Assembly (NCBI GenBank): GCA_030610945.1
Contig: JAUWQV010000001.1
Location: 25,901-89,900, forward strand
Length of the DNA stretch: 64,000 nucleotides
Direction of reading: 5' to 3'
Source of the DNA: Methanocellales archaeon
GTDB taxonomy: Archaea; Halobacteriota; UBA148; JAUWXC01
Shown here: positions 4,617 to 22,941 of the stretch, piece by piece
Layout of the letters: every line of letters begins with the position of its first letter
How positions within the stretch are numbered: the stretch's first letter is position 1
Notes under the pieces: generated by a model
Database searches by the model: none
Told to the model about the DNA's origin: nothing
What the model saw: only the letters and a program-made list of their open reading frames with translations
Made by a program: the position numbers and the translations under genes

Positions 4617-5459
4617 TTGATGGCATCTACTATTGACTTTGATTGTGTGTATAAGAAAATCCAATCACGAGTGGATGAATACAATAAATTAAATATATGG
4701 TTAACATGCGTCTTTGTATGTGGTTTAGTTTCTTTTTTCATCCTTTATTTCAATATTTTATTTAAATTTCTCTCCAGCTCTATATTTTTTGTTATACTAG
4801 CAGTATTTTTAATTTGTGTAATAATTGGCTTGAAAATTAAAATCAAATCTAGCAGACTAAAAATAACAAATAGATATAGAATAATCTACTACTTACAAAA
4901 TATTAAAAAAGCGATTCTTGTCGACGACTTTAGTTCTGCAAAAGCTGGCATTAGTTCTTGCGTACTATTTTTGAATGATTTGATTGAAGAATATAAATAT
5001 ACAGAGTTTACCGAGGAGATAGTAGAGAGTTTGGTCAAAATTGAGGCCATACTTAGAAACTATGCATACCCCATTATATCGGAAGATTCTCAAAAATATC
5101 CTTTAAAAGTAAGTACAATCTCTGATTATTTGGATGTGGCATCAAGGCAAATTTATCTTAACAAACTAAAAGAAGCTACAATGTTCAGCACTAAAGGCTT
5201 TGAAGAAGTCGAAGTTCCAATCAAGTCTGTTATACCGTTATCGAGATTTCGAATAGGGGCAGATAAGTTAGTAGGATATACACAAACTAATCCATCAGCT
5301 CGATATATTGGCACTTCTTTAATTGCGTTTATCGTAGTTTTTGGATTTGACATGGCACTAAAAAGGGATTTGAATGTTGTCAAATTTGACATGCTAACCA
5401 TTTTGGGTATCTCTGTAATGATCGCCACTGGTATTATGTCCTCTCGGAAAAGTAAGTAA
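4617..5459 (+). CDS. Hypothetical membrane protein (2 N-terminal and 2 C-terminal TM helices, soluble middle) in an AT-rich islet
   Basis: Long ORF with strong AT bias (about 30% GC) compared with its neighbours. Hydrophobic segments at both ends. No recognisable family. Confidence 0.5.
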   Translation: MMASTIDFDCVYKKIQSRVDEYNKLNIWLTCVFVCGLVSFFILYFNILFKFLSSSIFFVILAVFLICVIIGLKIKIKSSRLKITNRYRIIYYLQNIKKAILVDDFSSAKAGISSCVLFLNDLIEEYKYTEFTEEIVESLVKIEAILRNYAYPIISEDSQKYPLKVSTISDYLDVASRQIYLNKLKEATMFSTKGFEEVEVPIKSVIPLSRFRIGADKLVGYTQTNPSARYIGTSLIAFIVVFGFDMALKRDLNVVKFDMLTILGISVMIATGIMSSRKSK

Positions 5460-13312: not shown

Positions 13313-15184
13313 ATGGCAAACTTGATTGCAGAGGAATTAGCAAAGAAGCAAAAAGCGATAAGCGTTGCTGAGTTCTTTGAAAAGAACAAGCAAATACTCG
13401 GATTCGACTCGGCGCCGAGATGTCTTATTACATGCGTCAAAGAGGCAGTAGATAATGCATTGGATGCCTGCGAGGAAGCTGGCATTCTTCCTGATATTTT
13501 AGTGCAAATTGAGAAAGCAGACAGAAATAACTATAGAATCATAGTCGAGGACAATGGCCCTGGAATCGTCAAAGCACAGATACCGAGAATTTTTGGTAAA
13601 TTGCTCTATGGCTCACGATTTCACGAACTAAGGCAGAGTAGGGGGCAGCAAGGCATCGGCATCTCAGCAGCAGTGCTTTATTCACAGCTAACATCGGGAA
13701 AGCCCACCAAGATCACCTCTAGAATCGGGAAAGACCGGCCCGCGCATTATTATGAATTAATCATCAATACCAAGACCAACGAGCCGGAGATTGTAGCCGA
13801 AAATGTGGTCGAGTGGGATAGACCGCATGGAACCAGGAGCGAGATGGAACTGGAGGGCGCATATGTCAAAGGGCGCCGCCAGTCCGTCTATGAATATCTC
13901 AAGGACACGGCAATTGTGAACCCGCATGCACGAATCACGTTAATTGAACCTGATGGCAATGAGGAGATGTTTGAGCGCGTAACTGACCAGGCGCCCCTAA
14001 AAGCGGATGCGATTAGGCCACATCCAGAAGGGACAGAACTGGGCACTCTAATCAAGATGCTCAGATACACAGACCGCTACAAGCTGATGTCGTTTTTGAT
14101 GAACGAATTTGCCAGGATAGGACGAAAGACAGCTGAAGATCTGTGCAAAGTTGCAAACCTAGACCTAGAGGCGAATCCAAACGACCTATCAAGAGATCAG
14201 GCATTGCGACTTCTGGAGGCGTTCAAAACCGTCAAGATAACGGCCCCTCCCACTGACTGCCTATCGCCAATTGGCAAGGACTTAATCTATAAAGGGTTGG
14301 AGAAGGAGTACAACGTCGACTTCATCACAACCACCACGAGACCGCCTGCAGTGCATTCTGGCAACCCGTTCGTGGTCGAGGCGGGCATCGCCTATGGCGG
14401 CAGTCTGCCGAAAGAGGATAAAATTACCATACTTAGGTTTGCTAACAGGGTGCCGCTGCTGTACCAGCAGGGCGGATGTGCTATTACGCACGCCATCGAG
14501 AGGATGAATTGGAGGCAGTACGATGTGGACCAACCGGGGGGGAGTGGGATTCCTATCGGTCCGATAGTCGTGTCCATCCATGTCGCATCCACGAAGGTTC
14601 CGTTTACGTCTGAATCCAAGGATGCAATAGCGGATATACCAGAGATAATAGACGAGGTTGAATTAACAGTCAGGCATATTGCCAGAGACTTGAGAAATTA
14701 CCTTTCGAGGCAGAAATTGCTGGAGAAGCGCAAGGAAAAAGAGGAGATTATCAAGAAGGTTCTGCCAAAAATGGTCACAAAGGTCTCTTCAATCCTTGGA
14801 AAAGAGGAGCCCGACATTATGCCAATTGTGGCGAACATCATGGGCAATGTCCTTGTCCAGCGGAAAATCACGGGAGATAATGACCAGCGCGAGGTAACGA
14901 TTCGACTTAAAAACTTTGGGGAGCATGCGAGGACGTTCAAATTGCATGAACTGTCCAAATATGAACTCGTAAAGGCGGACCCAGCAGCAAAGGTTGTGGA
15001 AATGAATGGCGATGCCGCCCAGATATGGAAGATATCGCTTAAACCAAACGAGGAAAGAATGCTGCAATATAGCATCAAGCACGATGGAGATCTAGAATTC
15101 CCCATGCCCGTAGTCGAGGACATAGATGGCGAACTGGTCACCGGTGCAAGGGCTTTAGAGCTGGAAGGGGTTGAGGAAGAATGA
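13313..15184 (+). CDS. top6B: DNA topoisomerase VI subunit B
   Basis: GHKL ATPase (Bergerat fold) motifs ([22 protein letters not shown]). 623 aa. Overlaps top6A. Confidence 0.9.
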
Positions 15185-16281
15185 GCGCAAAAGTGAAAAC
15201 AAGAGAAAAAGATGAACTGACAAAGAAAAAACTGCTCGACCTCATAAAAGAGTTTTACGGCCAATTACAGAGTGAGCAGGTTCCGTACCTCAATCTGCCG
15301 ACCAGGACAAAAGCCAATATTGAGTATAATGATGTATCAGAGGTGTGGGTTTACGGCAGCAGAGAGAGCATGAGGAGTGCAAAAACCGTTAGGGGTGCAT
15401 ACCAGTTACTCAAAACCTCGTATGTAGTAGATTTTCTGAATGCCCAGTTAGACCAGTCAAAATCTTCCACGTTGAGAGAGCTGTACTATATCTCCGAGAA
15501 CTGGGATTTGGCAAAATTCAGGGAACAGCAGGAAAGCGACAGGCTGATTGAAGACCTAGAAATCGTGAGCGAATTGCAAAGGGAGAACTTCCATATCAGG
15601 CCAGAGGAGGATGGCGCCTCTATCATAGGCCCCATTAAAATCAAGGAGCAGACGAGAAGGGGCACAAAAGTAATCCATTGCCAGGATGATGTCGGCGATG
15701 CCGGATACCAGATCCCAAATAATGTTAATAATATAGAGTTCTTGGAGCACGATGCAAAAATGATAGTGGCGATAGAGACTGGTGGTATGAAGGACAGGTT
15801 GATTGAGAACGGCTTTGATGAAAAGTTTAACGCAATTATCGTGCACCTGAAAGGCCAGCCGGCCAGAAGCACACGACGGTTGCTCAAACGGATGAATGAA
15901 GAGTTGAAGATTCCGGTAGTAGTATTCACCGATGCGGACCCGTGGTCCTATAGGATATTCGCCTCCGTGGCGTATGGGGCAATTAAGAGTGCTCACCTAT
16001 CAGAATACATGGCAACTCCTGCAGCGCAGTTCATCGGCATTAGCCCTTCGGACATAGTCAGCTACGAATTACCGACCGATAAGTTGTCTGACCAGGACAT
16101 AAAGGCACTGCACTCGATGCTCTCTGACCCGAGATTCAAAACGGAGTTCTGGGAGAATGAGATTAACCTACAACTTGAGTTAAACAAGAAGAGCGAGCAA
16201 CAGTCACTGGCAAAGTATGGACTGGATTACGTGACGGACAAATATCTGCCAGAGCGCCTGACTGAGATGGGCGTAATTTAG
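15181..16281 (+). CDS. top6A: DNA topoisomerase VI subunit A (Spo11-like)
   Basis: 366 aa. Winged-helix and Toprim-like regions. Start is translationally coupled to top6B. Confidence 0.9.
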
Positions 16282-17129
16282 AGCCTCTCGATTTTTCTGA
16301 AGGTGGATACCTCGCGCAGCAGATTGTGCAGCGTTGGTGGCAATTTTCCCTTCAGCATGTAAATGCTCCATGCATAATACGCATAAGCGTAGATGCCGAG
16401 AACGATATAAAGAGAGCCGAACATAATCTCGCTCGGCAGCAGGATATCCATAAGGATTGTGATAGTCGGGATTACCAGAATTGGCACACAGCCCCAGACC
16501 CAGATGCCAAGATTATACCACATGTTGTATTCGGTGGTAATGCCAAGCCACCATATGAAGAACATCGCTGTAATGACATATGGCACAAATCCCCTAGGAT
16601 ACTGCACCATAAACACGAACGCTGCGAATGTGATGTTTATCAGCACGACGATTTTAATGAGAAATGCGATTGGGTCAGATGAAGCTATCAGGTCACTTAA
16701 TCTTGGAGAGGTTACGCCACCAACCATTTTCATGCTACCAGATGAATCAATGCGCTCCTTGAGGTCGTCGATGCTTGTGTCCACCATATCCATCTTTCTA
16801 ATTACTCCCTCCAAATCGACGCGTACCCCTGCAATCTCCCTGAGTAGTGGCTTTAGCCGCTCGTACACACCTTCTTCAAACACAGTGTCCATCAAGCTCT
16901 CAAATAAAAGTGCCTGCTTGATTACGGAGAATGCGCCCAGCCCTGCACCTATGCCGATAAACAAGATGATTGAATTCTTGACGAGTTCCAACTTGCTGAA
17001 TTCGTCGGTAAAAACATAGATTAACGGGAATATGGAGATATAAATCAGGAATAGGGACGCGCACAGGGCGCAAAATATGTTTAACTTCTGGATAAGCGAT
17101 AATCGCTGCCTTGTGCCTATGCGTTCCAT
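16278..17129 (-). CDS. Hypothetical polytopic membrane protein, last gene of the cytochrome module
   Basis: Hydrophobic N-terminal and C-terminal halves separated by a soluble segment. Start set at the internal Met (MERIGTRQ) to avoid overlap with the upstream cytochrome. Confidence 0.45.
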
Positions 17130-17157
17130 AGTGCTCTCTTTTCTTATCTTTATGATA

Positions 17158-17964
17158 TCACATATATCTTTGCTTCGTTGGATTTTGAGCATCATGCAGA
17201 TAATGAGTAGTGCTCACGGGAACCGGATTCACCCCGATATGGCTGTGACATCCCATGCAGGTCCAGAAGCCCTTGGATATATACATACTGTTAGGAGCAA
17301 CGTTTCCGCCGGGCTGGCCGAATGGGCTTCCGTCAACGTGGGATGATTCCTCTTTACTGGCACTGGCATAAAACGGCACATGAATGTTGCCCTCGCTCAA
17401 TAAATAGCCCGCGTGCACAACGCTTGAAGAGGTGTCCGGGAACAAATCCGGATCGTTGTATTGATTAACCGCATTGCCGTGACACCTGTCATCATCGCAG
17501 CCCCTCGCAGTCGTGTTCGTATGCGTGGCGCTGATGCCAAAGAGCGTTGCCTTGTGGCACAGGAAGCACATCTCATCAGTGGTGATATTTCCGCGACCGT
17601 CTTCATCAAGGCTCACAAGCAATAGTTTTCCATCGCTGTCCCTCTGCCATTTTCCCTCAGTGATGTTCCATGTCCATATACCCTTGTCAGTTGTGTTTAT
17701 CACCCCATTTACTGCATCGTAATCGATTCCGCCAATCGCCAGGTATGTGGTATAGTTTACATTGCCTGCCGCCCTCTTATGCGCTACAAATGCAGGCTCG
17801 CTCATATTTGCGCTCAATTGCTCCGCCACGTCGTTATGGCAGCGCAGGCATCCTACTCTGCTCGCAAAAAGGTGCTGGCCCGCGAATAAAGAGTAAACTG
17901 CTGGCAGCACGAATAATATCATGGCTACCATCGCAATGATTAATAGTACGGTCTTTTGTTTCAC
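17158..17964 (-). CDS. Multihaem c-type cytochrome (3 CxxCH plus one CX4CH-like site), secreted
   Basis: CLRCH, CFLCH and CMGCH, plus CDDDRCH. N-terminal signal peptide with a conserved ...LFVLPAVYSLFAGQH segment shared with the 18852-19424 paralogue. Many N-x-S/T sequons. Confidence 0.8.
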   Translation of the reverse strand: MKQKTVLLIIAMVAMILFVLPAVYSLFAGQHLFASRVGCLRCHNDVAEQLSANMSEPAFVAHKRAAGNVNYTTYLAIGGIDYDAVNGVINTTDKGIWTWNITEGKWQRDSDGKLLLVSLDEDGRGNITTDEMCFLCHKATLFGISATHTNTTARGCDDDRCHGNAVNQYNDPDLFPDTSSSVVHAGYLLSEGNIHVPFYASASKEESSHVDGSPFGQPGGNVAPNSMYISKGFWTCMGCHSHIGVNPVPVSTTHYLHDAQNPTKQRYM

Positions 17965-18009
17965 AGACTACCACCATCGAGTATTTATATAATTTATATG
18001 TTATATTGA

Positions 18010-18741
18010 CTAAATACTTTTTGTACGAAATTCTTCGAGAGTCATGTAGAGGTAGAGCGCAATCATGAGGACAAACAGCATAAGTCCTGCAGTCTGCACC
18101 GATTGCACCAGCGTTTTTACGAACCCAAATTCCTCCCCGTATTTGCCAATCCTTGCTATGCTCGCATCCTCGATGAAGTAATTGCCCAGGTCCTTGATTA
18201 CTATGGGCTTTTTATTGAACAGGATTGCCTGTCCTTGGATATCGTCCCTGTGCACGACCCAGGGATCAACTCGGGGATTGGCATCACCTTTGGTCCTGTA
18301 TACGCTGTCCTCGACGGAGTAGACCCTGTGTACCACGGGATTGAATACCTGTGATGTATGGAACATGATGATGTCCCCCTCCTGCAGGTCCACGAAAAGG
18401 TTCTGCATCAGGATTAAGTCGCCCTTATTGAATGCCGGCGCCATAGAGCCCGAGCCAATCGCCACGAAGGCGATGATATTCAGGTAAAGGATTATTCCCA
18501 AGAGCACCACGATGACTAATGGCAGCGCAGACATCACGATGCGCGGTCTTTTAGAAAGTTCCTCATACCTGCGCATGATTATGTCGACCTTGTCCTCCCT
18601 GTTGCGCTCAACAAATTTATCTGCGATTTTCCCGAGCAAGGCAAATGGATAGATGGAGCTCCTTCTCTTGACCATGTAGAGCGCGCAGAATAGGATTGCC
18701 AAAATGCCAGTCCAGATGATTAAGCCAATCGTATTGCTCAT
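18010..18741 (-). CDS. Type I signal peptidase (S26 family, archaeal Sec11-like)
   Basis: Catalytic Ser box GSGSMAP and His box (HRV). Flanking TM segments. 243 aa. Confidence 0.75.
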   Translation of the reverse strand: MSNTIGLIIWTGILAILFCALYMVKRRSSIYPFALLGKIADKFVERNREDKVDIIMRRYEELSKRPRIVMSALPLVIVVLLGIILYLNIIAFVAIGSGSMAPAFNKGDLILMQNLFVDLQEGDIIMFHTSQVFNPVVHRVYSVEDSVYRTKGDANPRVDPWVVHRDDIQGQAILFNKKPIVIKDLGNYFIEDASIARIGKYGEEFGFVKTLVQSVQTAGLMLFVLMIALYLYMTLEEFRTKSI

Positions 18742-18851
18742 ACCAGCCTCAGACGATATTCAACATCTTCAATAAAAAGAAGATATAAACTAAAAAAGAA
18801 AAAGATGGTGGTCTTAAACCACCATTTTATTGCTTAGTTGTCGCAGTTACC

Positions 18852-19424
18852 TCAGTAACCGCCACCAGATGTCGTGGTCTCGTTGGTGCCTTCTGCAGTG
18901 AAGTCACTGAGGACCCATTCGCCTGCATCGTGTCCAGCTGTAAAGCTCAGAGTGGTTGCCCTTTGCCATGTGATGTTCACGCCGATGTGTGTGTGGCATC
19001 CAATACAGGCTTCATTAGCGCCCTCCATCAGAGTTGCATCATCTGCGCCTGCGTCTCGATAGAACTCTGTGTGAGATTCGTCTATAGCGTTCAGCTCAAC
19101 TGCTACATTGTCGTGACATACAATGCACTGCGGTGATATCGAAGCGTGCTGGGCATCGCTGCTGAATTGCGTACCGCTCATGCCACCACCATCATCACCC
19201 TTAGCATGTCCTTTGGTCTGGTGACAAAATTGGCAGCTCATTCCCTCGTGAGCCGTGCCCGCTTTTAATTCATCGTATTCCGCACCGTGGCATTTACCAC
19301 ACTGGACGTCTTCTCCCTCAATGAACTGATGCTGCCCTGCAAACAATGAAAGCGCTGATGGCAGTACGAACAGGCCAACTGCTAACACTGCGCATACTAA
19401 CACAAGTGTTTTATTTCTTACCAT
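18852..19424 (-). CDS. Tetrahaem c-type cytochrome, secreted
   Basis: CGKCH, CQFCH, CIVCH and CIGCH. N-terminal signal ...LFVLPSALSLFAGQH and C-terminal ...CHTHIGVN are shared with the 17158-17964 paralogue. Confidence 0.8.
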   Translation of the reverse strand: MVRNKTLVLVCAVLAVGLFVLPSALSLFAGQHQFIEGEDVQCGKCHGAEYDELKAGTAHEGMSCQFCHQTKGHAKGDDGGGMSGTQFSSDAQHASISPQCIVCHDNVAVELNAIDESHTEFYRDAGADDATLMEGANEACIGCHTHIGVNITWQRATTLSFTAGHDAGEWVLSDFTAEGTNETTTSGGGY

Positions 19425-19548
19425 TTTGTTTTCTCCCTTTAATCATTCACATTTTATTAGGGGACGCCTTGCACTTGGCGCCATAAATCCCACTTAGGAT
19501 CTTCTTAGGTGGTTGTTTGCTCTGTAAATATATAAATTCTTTGCTATG

Positions 19549-19959
19549 TTAGTCCCAAACCATCGTAATCTCGTTATTCGCAACGTAACCGCCGGATTCA
19601 TCCACAATTTGCACCCAGATACGCAACGTATCGCCTGATTTCGGCTCTTTTCCGTCTTTGAAGCCGGCGGTGAGTTCATAGGTTCTTGGCCCTGTGTAGT
19701 CCGTGGACGTCCAGAAGTTGATCATGTCCGTGCCTTGCAAAACCCACACATACACGCCCGGCATATGCGGCGGATAATCCTTCGGGCGCTTGAGTGCATC
19801 CATGGCGCCCTGCTCAGCCTCAATGGTTTCGATGGTTGGCGCATCAGTCGTGCCGCCAATCGTTGTCGTGACCTTCAGGATTGGCACGGTAAGACAGCCA
19901 GAAATGCTGGTGACGAGGAAGATGATTAGGATTAAGGAAAATAGTTTGGAAATCTTCAT
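19549..19959 (-). CDS. Putative lipoprotein/secreted protein, hypothetical
   Basis: N-terminal signal with lipobox-like ISGC. No recognisable domain. First gene of the co-directional cytochrome module. Confidence 0.45.
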   Translation of the reverse strand: MKISKLFSLILIIFLVTSISGCLTVPILKVTTTIGGTTDAPTIETIEAEQGAMDALKRPKDYPPHMPGVYVWVLQGTDMINFWTSTDYTGPRTYELTAGFKDGKEPKSGDTLRIWVQIVDESGGYVANNEITMVWD

Positions 19960-20237
19960 CTGTGATACTTCCATATTATATAACCCTTCAAACGCTGATA
20001 AAAGTCTTCCTTTGGTTTATTTAAATCTTTTTATCTAATTGACGAAGTTCTACTGTTAACCTAATCTTTGTCCGCTGATATGATTCTAATGCTCCGCCAT
20101 TTCTTCTAACTCCTCGATTGGCACGTGCTTGGACTTTTTTGTGCCGATTAATACCCTAAGCGGGTCTTTTATCGTTCTAAATCTCTTGATTGTAGCCTCT
20201 TTAACCATAGAATCCCCGTGATTTTTTAAATTTAAAT

Positions 20238-22242: not shown

Positions 22243-22941
22243 GTGCCAGTATCGAGAAGGGATTTTCTCGGAATCATAGTAGGAACTGGAACGGGTCTCA
22301 TTGGTTTATCAGTTGCCAGTTGCCTTAATCGTCTAAGAGGGGGTGATGTGACGATGTTGCCAACGCCGAGATTGACGGGAAAGATGTCATTAGAAGAGGT
22401 AGTAAAGAAAAGAAGGTCGAGAAGAAGTTTTAGAGATGAGTCCCTGAGAATGGACCAGCTTTCGCAAATTCTCTGGGCAGCGCAGGGAATAACAGAAGGA
22501 TTTAAGAGAGCGGCACCATCTGCCGGTGCAACGTATCCGCTTGACTTATATGTTGTTGCAGGCAAGGTGGAAGAACTGGAAACAGGAGTGTATCACTATG
22601 ATCTAGGGAATCATTCACTCTCACTTCACGCAGAAGGAGATTTTCGGACTGATCTGGCAAGAGCGTGTGCAGCCCAAGGATTCATAGCAGATGCGCCTGT
22701 CTCGATAGTAATAACGGCAGAATATGAAAGGACTACGCAGCGATATGGAGAGAGGGGCATCAGATACGTGCACATAGAAGTCGGGCATGTAGGGCAGAAT
22801 ATATATCTTCAAGCAGAGGCATTGGGTCTTGGAACGGTGGCGATAGGAGCGTTTTACGATGATGAAATCGCGAAACTGCTACGTTTCCCAGAGGGGCATC
22901 AACCATTATATGTCATGCCAGTTGGATATGTAATGCAGTAA
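22243..22941 (+). CDS. SagB-type dehydrogenase / nitroreductase-fold protein with Tat signal and lipobox
   Basis: Twin-arginine motif SRRDFLG with hydrophobic stretch ending ...SVASC. Nitroreductase-like core. 232 aa. Confidence 0.65.
   Translation: MPVSRRDFLGIIVGTGTGLIGLSVASCLNRLRGGDVTMLPTPRLTGKMSLEEVVKKRRSRRSFRDESLRMDQLSQILWAAQGITEGFKRAAPSAGATYPLDLYVVAGKVEELETGVYHYDLGNHSLSLHAEGDFRTDLARACAAQGFIADAPVSIVITAEYERTTQRYGERGIRYVHIEVGHVGQNIYLQAEALGLGTVAIGAFYDDEIAKLLRFPEGHQPLYVMPVGYVMQ

Follow-up and report, generated by a model that had tools for sequence, protein, structure and literature searches.

Why should an archaeon keep the gene for a signal peptidase between two genes for exported multihaem cytochromes? 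During the oxidation of methane and alkanes, as well as in serpentinising systems, extracellular cytochrome filaments are thought to carry electrons between archaea and minerals or bacterial partners. One of them is the extracellular cytochrome nanowire of Archaeoglobus veneficus (AvECN; F2KMU8), of which the structure (8E5G) was reportedly solved by Baquero et al. in 2023. The secretion and assembly of such nanowires have been called an unanswered question (2025 preprint), and how the filaments are exported and assembled, as well as whether Methanoperedens makes them, is stated as not known (2025 preprint; 2026 review). Here, we discuss a locus at positions 16278-19974 of a 64,000-nucleotide stretch of DNA from a Methanocellales archaeon (contig JAUWQV010000001.1, positions 25,901 to 89,900; hereafter the window). 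In the list of open reading frames (ORFs) of the window, five co-directional ORFs on the minus strand encode a small exported protein ("lipo"), a tetrahaem cytochrome (cytA), the signal peptidase, a second cytochrome (cytB) and a polytopic membrane protein ("memb"), all five where the original prediction had placed them (Table 1).

The answer that we favour, at a probability of roughly 70%, is that the locus is a biogenesis module for extracellular multihaem cytochromes of the type of AvECN and of MmcX, a cytochrome of a related archaeon discussed below. The module would provide dedicated removal of the leader and possibly license assembly. Comparative evidence and the literature agree with the original prediction in placing a specialised peptidase among exported multihaem cytochromes; its dedicated role is what we infer. 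That interpretation was largely right, although it had recognised neither the homology to nanowire subunits nor the pair of peptidase and membrane protein that is already published.

cytA and the nanowire subunits

A profile of 18 members of the cytA family, searched against the PDB sequences, has AvECN (8E5G_A) as its top match (E=8.4e-39, 136.5 bits), far ahead of every other PDB entry. The alignment pairs query positions 2-194 with chain residues 3-241; it is nearly full length and includes the leader. The two proteins are ~35% identical and have in common four CxxCH motifs in register, extra conserved histidines, the leader (LPSTTSLFLGQH in AvECN) and the C-terminal NEACI[GA]CHT. By these comparisons, cytA is a homologue of the solved nanowire subunit.

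The four haem motifs of cytA (C42/C45/H46, C64/C67/H68, C100/C103/H104 and C140/C143/H144) are invariant across the family. The same is true of two further histidines, H32 and H118, while H59 and H93 are at least 90% conserved. Four conserved extra histidines are the number needed for bis-histidine ligation of four haems, and H32, H59, H93 and H118 are thus the candidate ligands. In AvECN, three of the four haems get their distal histidine from another subunit (review). A structural model of cytA made with AlphaFold2 (AF2) from an 18-sequence alignment has a mean predicted local distance difference test score (pLDDT) of 44.6, too poor for a fold search.

When one genome from each archaeal and bacterial species was scanned with a trimmed alignment as the seed (a 29-sequence alignment with cytB offered no conserved stretch), 199 relatives were found, in archaeal genomes of the type associated with extracellular electron transfer (EET), and 77 loci were kept. 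According to their record titles, these come from Methanoperedens, anaerobic methanotrophic archaea (ANME) of the groups ANME-1 and ANME-2c, Syntrophoarchaeum, GoM-Arc1, Archaeoglobaceae and similar lineages. Hence, the connection that had been drawn with archaea of the ANME, Methanoperedens and Ferroglobus type is borne out by related loci from those lineages.

Among described organisms, "Ca. Serpentinarchaeum aceticum" Met12, which comes from serpentinising springs, is the closest, and the lineage of the window is Serpentinarchaeum-like. The topoisomerase VI subunits of the window fall into clusters, at 90% identity or more, with those of metagenome-assembled genomes labelled Methanosarcinales or Methanocellales archaeon. 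In Met12, a locus with genes for a 137-aa protein, MmcX and an 8-haem paralogue, then small genes, is followed by Top6A/B and SbcDC (Suzuki et al. 2024, supplementary tables). This locus is syntenic with window positions 13313-19974. The lipo gene, MmcX and Top6A/B-SbcDC are kept, whereas the 8-haem paralogue, a PIN gene and other small genes replace the peptidase, cytB and memb; moreover, the leaders have GMH in place of GQH. Synteny and family membership make cytA the likely counterpart of MmcX. The latter is the most highly expressed gene of Met12, at about ten times the genome median, with the gene downstream of it at about 0.5; it has been modelled as AvECN-like, with a root mean square deviation of 3.4 Å relative to 8E5G, and electron uptake was observed with MmcX in Shewanella (Suzuki et al. 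2024). cytA is a probable major filament subunit; that it polymerises is extrapolated from the ~35% identity to AvECN. A peptidase is mentioned neither in the accessible AvECN and MmcX papers nor in the nanowire reviews.

The shared leader and its candidate cleavage sites

As originally predicted, the two cytochromes have a conserved signal-peptide region and a conserved C-terminus in common. Their N-termini are identical at 24 of 57 residues (E=2e-12), and around the last haem motif, CxGCH[ST]HIGVN, 9 of 11 residues are identical. The SLFAGQH motif, sought across the whole window, is carried by cytA and cytB only, and no other ORF of the window has two or more CxxCH motifs.

The same leader recurs in other genomes. 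The 140 unique leaders from cytochrome loci, aligned on Gln-His, are ~30 residues long and comprise a basic N-terminus and a hydrophobic helix in which certain small residues are fixed (Ala 88%, Ala 83%, Gly 91%), followed by Pro (99%) and then S-T-V-S-L-F(95%)-[S/A/G]-G(96%)-Q(100%)-H(100%). Across 29 aligned sequences, P22, Q31 and H32 of cytA do not vary, and conservation of L27, F28 and G30 is at least 90%. The motif was found in 154 ORFs, 153 of which also encode at least one CxxCH. Its carriers include 4-haem AvECN-type and cytB-type proteins, ~110-aa 3-haem proteins of ANME-1 and 7- to 11-haem proteins of Methanoperedens. The leader is far more conserved than an ordinary signal peptide. 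In an independent alignment only the His is near-universal, with GMH, GEH, GSH and GTH as variants (Suzuki et al.). A further variant, ISLFGGDH with Asp for Gln, occurs in the ~110-aa three-haem protein that lies between the peptidase and memb in ANME-1 (Table 1).

Where would this leader be cut? With a site after x-x-S (between ALS and LF in cytA, and between VYS and LF in cytB), small residues occupy positions -1 and -3 in 98-99% of the leaders, with Pro at -5. With a site after LF[S/A/G], the rule fits 92% of them, and AvECN has Leu at -1 there. Because the -3/-1 rule fits better after xxS than after LF[S/A/G], a mature protein that starts with LF(A/S)GQH would be favoured over one that starts with GQH. 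Cleavage after SLFA, as had been predicted, is a possible site; however, the leader logo conforms better to a cut two to three residues earlier, after xxS.

The signal peptidase

That an S26 type I signal peptidase is encoded between the cytochromes, as the original prediction had it, is clear from scores above the cutoffs for both the archaeal signal peptidase I model (TIGR02228; 72.6 bits vs 51.85) and Peptidase_S26 (PF10502; 27.3 vs 22.9). The catalytic residues are Ser99 in SGSMAP, His138 in HR and Asp153 in GDA, and S99, M100, P102, H138, R139, G152, D153 and A154 show no variation among 14 to 24 members of the subfamily. The protein has three hydrophobic segments. An extra N-terminal transmembrane (TM) segment is followed by a ~45-residue basic cytoplasmic linker, TM2, the catalytic domain, a conserved extension (KP[IV]V..G.YFI...YG.EY) and a C-terminal TM segment, a 3-TM layout that is common to 24 subfamily members. 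Between the subfamily and other homologues, the scores drop from 116 to 66 bits. A word-indexed protein search returned close relatives of the peptidase and memb only, and the distant ones came from scans of the loci and from an exhaustive HMMER search. On this evidence, the enzyme belongs to a distinct 3-TM subfamily of S26B signal peptidase I, with its catalytic residues intact.

The comparison with SipW and TasA that had been made holds as a functional analogy. However, the enzyme is not a member of the SipW family; its match to the SipW equivalog (NF046067) is partial, with 37.8 bits vs a cutoff of 190. In the tapA-sipW-tasA operon of Bacillus subtilis, a dedicated signal peptidase of the endoplasmic reticulum (ER) type serves a fibre subunit and an accessory protein. 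As in the window, an ER/archaeal-type S26 gene thus lies between genes for presumed secreted substrates, one of which forms fibres in Bacillus. The window differs in that the substrates are haem proteins and not of the TasA fold, in the extra peptidase TM segments and in the constant six-TM partner, and the likeness is one of analogy only.

Is there another signal peptidase to do the housekeeping? Met12 has a separate, canonical Sec11 of 172 aa (ATZ61127.1), and Syntrophoarchaeum and Methanoperedens have one separate single-TM Sec11 of ~170-200 aa per genome (Suzuki et al., ortholog table). It is on these relatives that the notion of a dedicated rather than housekeeping peptidase in the window would rest.

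The membrane protein

memb matches no Pfam or NCBIfam family, and its family is rare, with 79 cluster representatives among 1.84 billion proteins in an exhaustive HMMER search. Hydropathy and the helix layout of an AF2 model point to about six TM helices, with outside loops of 2 to 4 residues and, between TM2 and TM3, a long helix on the cytoplasmic side. The model, made from a 7-sequence alignment, is poor (pLDDT 46.8) and was used for the helix layout alone. A Trp-rich motif, [FM]WW..[IV]T.E[YF].LW.....W.W..P, is predicted to lie at the turn between TM4 and TM5.

In three family members of 587-663 aa (P0212, P0213 and P0217), memb is fused to N-terminal TPR domains, with no signal peptide and with long acidic linkers. 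In P0235 (1483 aa), it lies between a large exported beta-propeller/Ig-like region plus a TM segment and long Lys/Glu-rich cytoplasmic repeats. Fusions to enzymes or cytochromes were not seen. The TPR fusions, together with the fusion to an exported domain and TM segment, argue for a cytoplasmic N-terminus of the memb core (N-in).

Linkage of the peptidase, memb and the cytochromes

If the peptidase serves the cytochromes, the two should keep company in other genomes, and an analysis of their co-occurrence, which the original prediction had called for, finds them linked from both directions. When the window proteins were compared by BLAST with all ORFs of 84 cytochrome-seeded loci, homologues of the signal peptidase were found in 25, of memb in 23 and of lipo in 23. 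In these 25 loci, the peptidase gene is always co-directional, and memb, in the 23 loci that have it, lies directly or one gene downstream. The 25 loci come from Methanoperedens, ANME-1, ANME-2c, Syntrophoarchaeum, GoM-Arc1, Archaeoglobi and the clade of the window. The order that recurs on one strand is lipo (optional), one to six cytA-type genes, the peptidase, another leader-bearing cytochrome (optional) and memb. Clusters of other genomes include cytochromes with 7 to 34 haems and CX4CH sites.

Seen from the peptidase, 80 metagenome loci, many of them on contigs of just 1-5 kb, give the same picture. A cytochrome with at least two CxxCH motifs lies within 3 kb in 59 of the loci, memb at most 4 kb downstream in 35, and one or both are near the peptidase in 68. 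Where the downstream sequence extends to 3.5 kb or more (20 loci), memb is present in 14 cases. In several metagenome-assembled genomes, one cytochrome locus includes the peptidase and the additional ones do not, as would fit an enzyme that acts in trans. In eight loci (L130, L137, L141, L143, L146, L147, L151 and L152), the peptidase and memb genes are convergent (tail-to-tail), mostly with no directly adjoining multihaem cytochrome, an arrangement that marks the pair as the constant core. Peptidase genes in housekeeping neighbourhoods were seen next to aIF5A and agmatinase (L103 and L118) and next to UbiA-like and EPSP-synthase-like genes (L136 and L144).

A cytochrome cluster from an ANME-1 metagenome was reportedly described by Meyerdierks et al. 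in 2010. A peptidase and an "8x TMH" protein have been described as two highly conserved genes, found throughout the ANME groups and in Syntrophoarchaeum, Argoarchaeum, Geoglobus and Ferroglobus, to which the pair is restricted; cytochrome-free ANME-1 genomes are without both, and a role of the pair in cytochrome maturation was proposed (Chadwick et al. 2022). The ANME-1 table of that study lists BSM_13360 (peptidase) and BSM_13380 (8x TMH) with one gene between them, and in the ANME-1 loci discussed here a 3-haem leader-bearing cytochrome separates the peptidase and memb in the matching order. Judged by context, distribution and this gene order, memb and the 8x TMH protein of Chadwick et al. 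2022 most likely belong to one family. In the published pair, as in the window, a signal peptidase is accompanied by a polytopic membrane protein that has no annotation, beside multihaem cytochromes. However, the pair of the window is from a non-methanotrophic lineage and flanks nanowire-type subunits, whereas the published one flanks CcmF2 and MHC-B. Furthermore, for memb of the window ~six TM helices and a cytoplasmic coiled segment are predicted, as compared to eight TM helices and a large Trp-rich outside loop for the published protein.

cytB and the small exported protein

Are the two cytochromes of the locus paralogues, as was suggested? This holds for the leader with the first haem module and for the C-terminal motif, but not for what lies between them. 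When the families of cytA and cytB are aligned with hhalign, only the first 53 columns match (99.8% probability), and the middle ~180 residues are unalignable. In a phmmer search, cytB matches 8E5G over residues 4-65 only (E=0.005), and full-length homology to the AvECN family was not found. From its sequence, cytB is best described as a distinct cytochrome family that has in common with cytA the leader and haem-1 module and the short C-terminal CxGCHSH motif.

The number of three to four haems assigned to cytB agrees with its three CxxCH motifs plus CDDDRCH. This non-canonical CX4CH site is present as had been noted, and it is conserved as GCDDD[RT]CHGN in Methanoperedens homologues 41-42% identical to cytB (loci L026 and L015); close homologues are encoded in L002, L008, L165 and L166. 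The corresponding site of RZB29223.1 reads CDDDWCH (alignment of Suzuki et al.). CDDDRCH is therefore a conserved site that plausibly binds haem. The larger cytochrome is also rich in N-x-S/T sequons, as the original prediction said, with 6 vs 2.4 ± 1.4 in shuffled cytB (P about 0.016).

The small exported protein has an N-terminal hydrophobic segment that ends in ISGC and a ~110-aa beta-rich domain, and it matches no Pfam or NCBIfam family. Its designation as a lipoprotein is in line with the lipobox-like ISGC, but the Cys is not conserved across the family. ISGC is found in the protein of the window, its close relatives and some Methanoperedens homologues, while most others are without the Cys and look TM-anchored. 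A TATA-like TTATATAA overlaps the first ATG of lipo and, together with the gene caller, favours the start at 19959, which gives a protein of 136 aa.

A model for cytochrome biogenesis and its alternatives

In the mechanism that we propose, cytA, cytB and, elsewhere, one to six more cytochromes would be made with the shared ~30-residue leader that ends in P-S-x-x-S-L-F-x-G-Q-H. Sec would insert the leader into the membrane, and the haems would be attached outside. The 3-TM peptidase, probably with the six-TM memb, would then recognise the leader and cut just before or within LF(A/S)GQH. Released cytA would join a haem-stacked filament like the one of A. veneficus, with cytB and the small exported protein as possible accessory components at its base or tip or as its anchor. 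In this scheme, it would be the peptidase of the locus, and not the housekeeping one, that cuts the leaders; memb would take part in the processing; and cytA would polymerise in the organism of the window. Geobacter offers a bacterial precedent of sorts. Its OmcS, OmcE and OmcZ are extracellular, polymerising multihaem cytochromes with inter-subunit histidine-haem bonds; OmcZ is matured by the protease OzpA, and its proteolytic processing is tied to filament formation. There is, however, no sequence relationship between those loci and that of the window, the archaeal envelope is without an outer membrane, and the protease class and cleavage logic differ.

A bolder version, which we hold to be possible but rather doubtful, is that the leader, the 3-TM peptidase and memb are a dedicated sorting and assembly system for archaeal nanowires in which cleavage licenses polymerisation. 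Here, recognition of the leader helix, AxxAxG...P, would take place within the membrane. Cleavage next to LFxGQH would free an N-terminal arm, the invariant His of which could become one of the three distal haem ligands that subunits of the AvECN type receive from other subunits. The same machine would handle cytB and the 7- to 34-haem proteins of other clusters as subunits for the base, the tip or connections, and the variable core of cytA (see below) might stem from cassette exchange or from diversifying selection where the surface of the wire is exposed.

Several observations weigh against a dedicated biogenesis module. The Met12 locus is without peptidase and memb, yet MmcX is strongly expressed and a canonical Sec11 is encoded elsewhere; both Met12 leaders read LFTGMH and not LFxGQH. 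Housekeeping Sec11 alone may suffice for leader removal. Two interpretations of the Met12 case are conceivable: the dedicated pair may be dispensable, or the leader may change together with the machinery. Moreover, 12 of the 80 peptidase-seeded loci have neither cytochrome nor memb, some of them among housekeeping genes, and the 3-TM subfamily might be a general peptidase in some lineages. The leader logo is also partly biased by retrieval, as [LV]SLFAGQHx[FW] was among the search patterns; selection by this pattern did not extend to the neighbouring paralogues.

How do other explanations fare? One follows the proposal of Chadwick et al. 2022 that the pair handles haem or matures cytochromes. 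The peptidase would process multihaem cytochromes generally and memb would be a CcmC/CcmF-like haem factor that helps to attach haem to unusual or very large cytochromes, with no part in filament assembly. The conserved Trp-rich motif of memb and the clusters with 7- to 34-haem cytochromes and CX4CH sites speak for it. However, the predicted N-in topology puts the Trp-rich stretch at the cytoplasmic end of TM4/TM5, where there is no outside loop, and the external loops, as far as the low-confidence model and the fusions tell, comprise 2 to 4 residues. No His is conserved throughout the memb family, the sole candidate (H268) being lost in P0235, and no haem-handling family of Pfam or NCBIfam matches memb. 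We therefore consider this explanation unlikely. A general Sec11 that lies in a cytochrome locus by chance is much less probable still. It would agree with the catalytic core, which is that of an ordinary archaeal signal peptidase I, with the lack of a second S26 peptidase gene in the 64 kb window and with the subfamily members in housekeeping neighbourhoods. Chance does not explain, however, why the adjacency to cytochromes and memb persists across orders with wholly different flanking genes, nor the two extra TM segments and the conserved extension of the subfamily. In addition, Met12, Syntrophoarchaeum and Methanoperedens have their separate Sec11 of ~170-200 aa (Suzuki et al.), and cytochrome-free ANME-1 is without the 3-TM peptidase (Chadwick et al. 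2022).

It is also conceivable that the N-terminus is never cleaved. cytA and cytB would then be anchored in the membrane like NrfH or CymA, LFxGQH would be a carrier or haem site at the membrane surface, and the peptidase would be unrelated or housekeeping. cytA does have a weak full-length match to NrfH (TIGR03153; residues 16-147 aligned to positions 4-136 of the 138 in the profile, E=4.4e-5), an invariant His precedes the first CxxCH by 10 residues, and conservation of the hydrophobic helix, with its fixed Ala, Ala and Gly, is odd for a cleaved signal peptide. Yet the TIGR03153 score is 23.5 bits vs a cutoff of 134.2, PF03264 gives E=0.18 and the NrfH structure 2J7A_C gives E=0.24 vs 8e-39 for AvECN; the first haem motif is CGKCHG and not the CxxCHxM of NrfH. 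Small residues at -1 and -3 in nearly all leaders are as expected for substrates of signal peptidase I, the linkage to the peptidase is too consistent for chance, and the AvECN filament is sheared from cells, which is hard to square with a retained membrane helix. An NrfH-like anchored cytochrome was dropped as the preferred explanation since the homology to AvECN is far stronger and the cleavage site conforms to the rule; it is the least probable of the explanations considered here.

The finding is not new in kind, because both of its halves, the nanowire-type cytochrome and the pair of peptidase and TMH protein, are already published. In the accessible literature, we found no link of the pair to nanowire-type subunits, no family-wide leader and no hypervariable cytA core. 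In about a hundred related loci compared here, nanowire-type subunit genes stand beside a specialised peptidase and a rare membrane protein, and the cytochromes associated with them all bear one recognisable leader, with LPSxxSLFxGQH at its end. This provides candidate assembly machinery, a sequence tag with which the substrates can be listed in any genome and a testable idea, namely that cleavage controls polymerisation; together, juxtaposition, tag and variable core make the biogenesis of archaeal nanowires experimentally approachable. Furthermore, MmcX is the proposed entry point for electrons in Met12, an electron-fuelled acetogen (Suzuki et al. 2024). Since the counterpart of cytA has this proposed role, differences between strains in the presence of the peptidase pair and in the cytA core could bear on energy metabolism.

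Variability and expression of cytA

Relative to its neighbours, cytA is the variable gene of the locus. Protein identity to locus L002 is 91% for the peptidase, 93% for cytB and 98% for memb, as compared to 52% for cytA; with L165, it is 95% for the peptidase, 85% for cytB and 58% for cytA (memb is not on that contig). At the DNA level, similarity is kept through the leader, lost for ~200-300 nt that encode haems 1-3 and back before the last haem motif, with the flanks of this core 87-94% identical to close relatives. Likewise, 16 metagenomic cytA variants have a near-identical leader and C-terminal module and are 48-70% identical overall, and in clusters at 90% identity cytA is the only member of its cluster, while those of its neighbours have five or more. 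The pattern suggests a mosaic gene, with cassette exchange or diversifying selection on what may be the major subunit.

Two signals read from the DNA bear on expression. A TATA-box-like element was found by eye upstream of cytA, and the hairpin behind the gene has a 9-bp stem followed by CTTTTTCTTTTTT, which is terminator- or attenuator-like; another TATA-like box precedes the peptidase gene. The element and the hairpin suggest that cytA could be a separate, strongly expressed unit apart from peptidase, cytB and memb, matching the expression pattern in Met12. A sigma-70 promoter scan gave nothing above shuffled sequences, as expected for an archaeon. A further hairpin (19490-19512) lies in the presumed 5' leader of cytA.

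The spacer between lipo and cytA (19425-19548) is a hot spot for insertions and is empty in the window. It holds two reverse-strand ORFs in L002 (2140-3752), an 18-haem cytochrome in L166 (2553-4315) and L008, and a 23-haem cytochrome in L167 (666-2723).

Features and surroundings of the locus

Table 1. Genes, motifs and signals of the cytochrome locus. Coordinates are those of the window unless a locus is named.
Feature	Position	Strand	Remarks
Small exported protein (lipo)	19549..19974	minus	136-141 aa; likely start 19959
cytA	18852..19424	minus	190 aa; four CxxCH
Signal peptidase	18010..18741	minus	243 aa; S26B, archaeal/ER-type
cytB	17158..17964	minus	268 aa; three CxxCH and one CX4CH
Membrane protein (memb)	16278..17195	minus	283-305 aa; 283 aa from likely start 17129 (gene caller)
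TATA-box-like TTTATATA, candidate cytA promoter	19529..19536	minus	read by eye; ~100 nt upstream of cytA start
Leader end of cytA, PSALSLFAGQH	19329..19361	minus	residues 22-32; candidate sites ALS/LF and LFA/GQ
Variable core of cytA	19024-19330	minus	compared with L002:3847-4168 and L165:1881-2078
Hairpin ATGGTGGTTTAAGACCACCAT, then T-runs	18805..18825	minus	27 nt past cytA stop, ahead of peptidase
Leader end of cytB, PAVYSLFAGQH	17872..17904	minus	residues 21-31; carries SLFAGQH
CDDDRCH, candidate CX4CH haem site	17479..17499	minus	cytB residues 156-162
ANME-1 three-haem proteins	L045:12806-13141; L057:2801-3133; L061:12401-12745; L066:3029-3373		

The genes that flank the locus are housekeeping genes, among them those for topoisomerase VI B/A, Mre11/Rad50, ThiL, an AmmeMemoRadiSam radical-SAM enzyme, SMC and a tRNA synthetase. 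A scan of the remaining genes of the 64 kb window found neither a Ccm gene nor a third multihaem cytochrome. AIRS and radical-SAM genes beside cytA-type genes were considered as a conserved link and rejected as coincidence, because the enzymes differ between the window (ThiL and AmmeMemoRadiSam) and L004 (methanogenesis marker 2 and CofH). Adjoining ThiL on the plus strand (22243-22941) is a SagB-type dehydrogenase of the nitroreductase family (TIGR03605, 148.7 bits). Its N-terminus (RRDFL) is Tat-like, and obvious partners for peptide maturation were not seen. Further away, a 280-aa ORF at 4617-5459 on the plus strand matches no Pfam or NCBIfam family.

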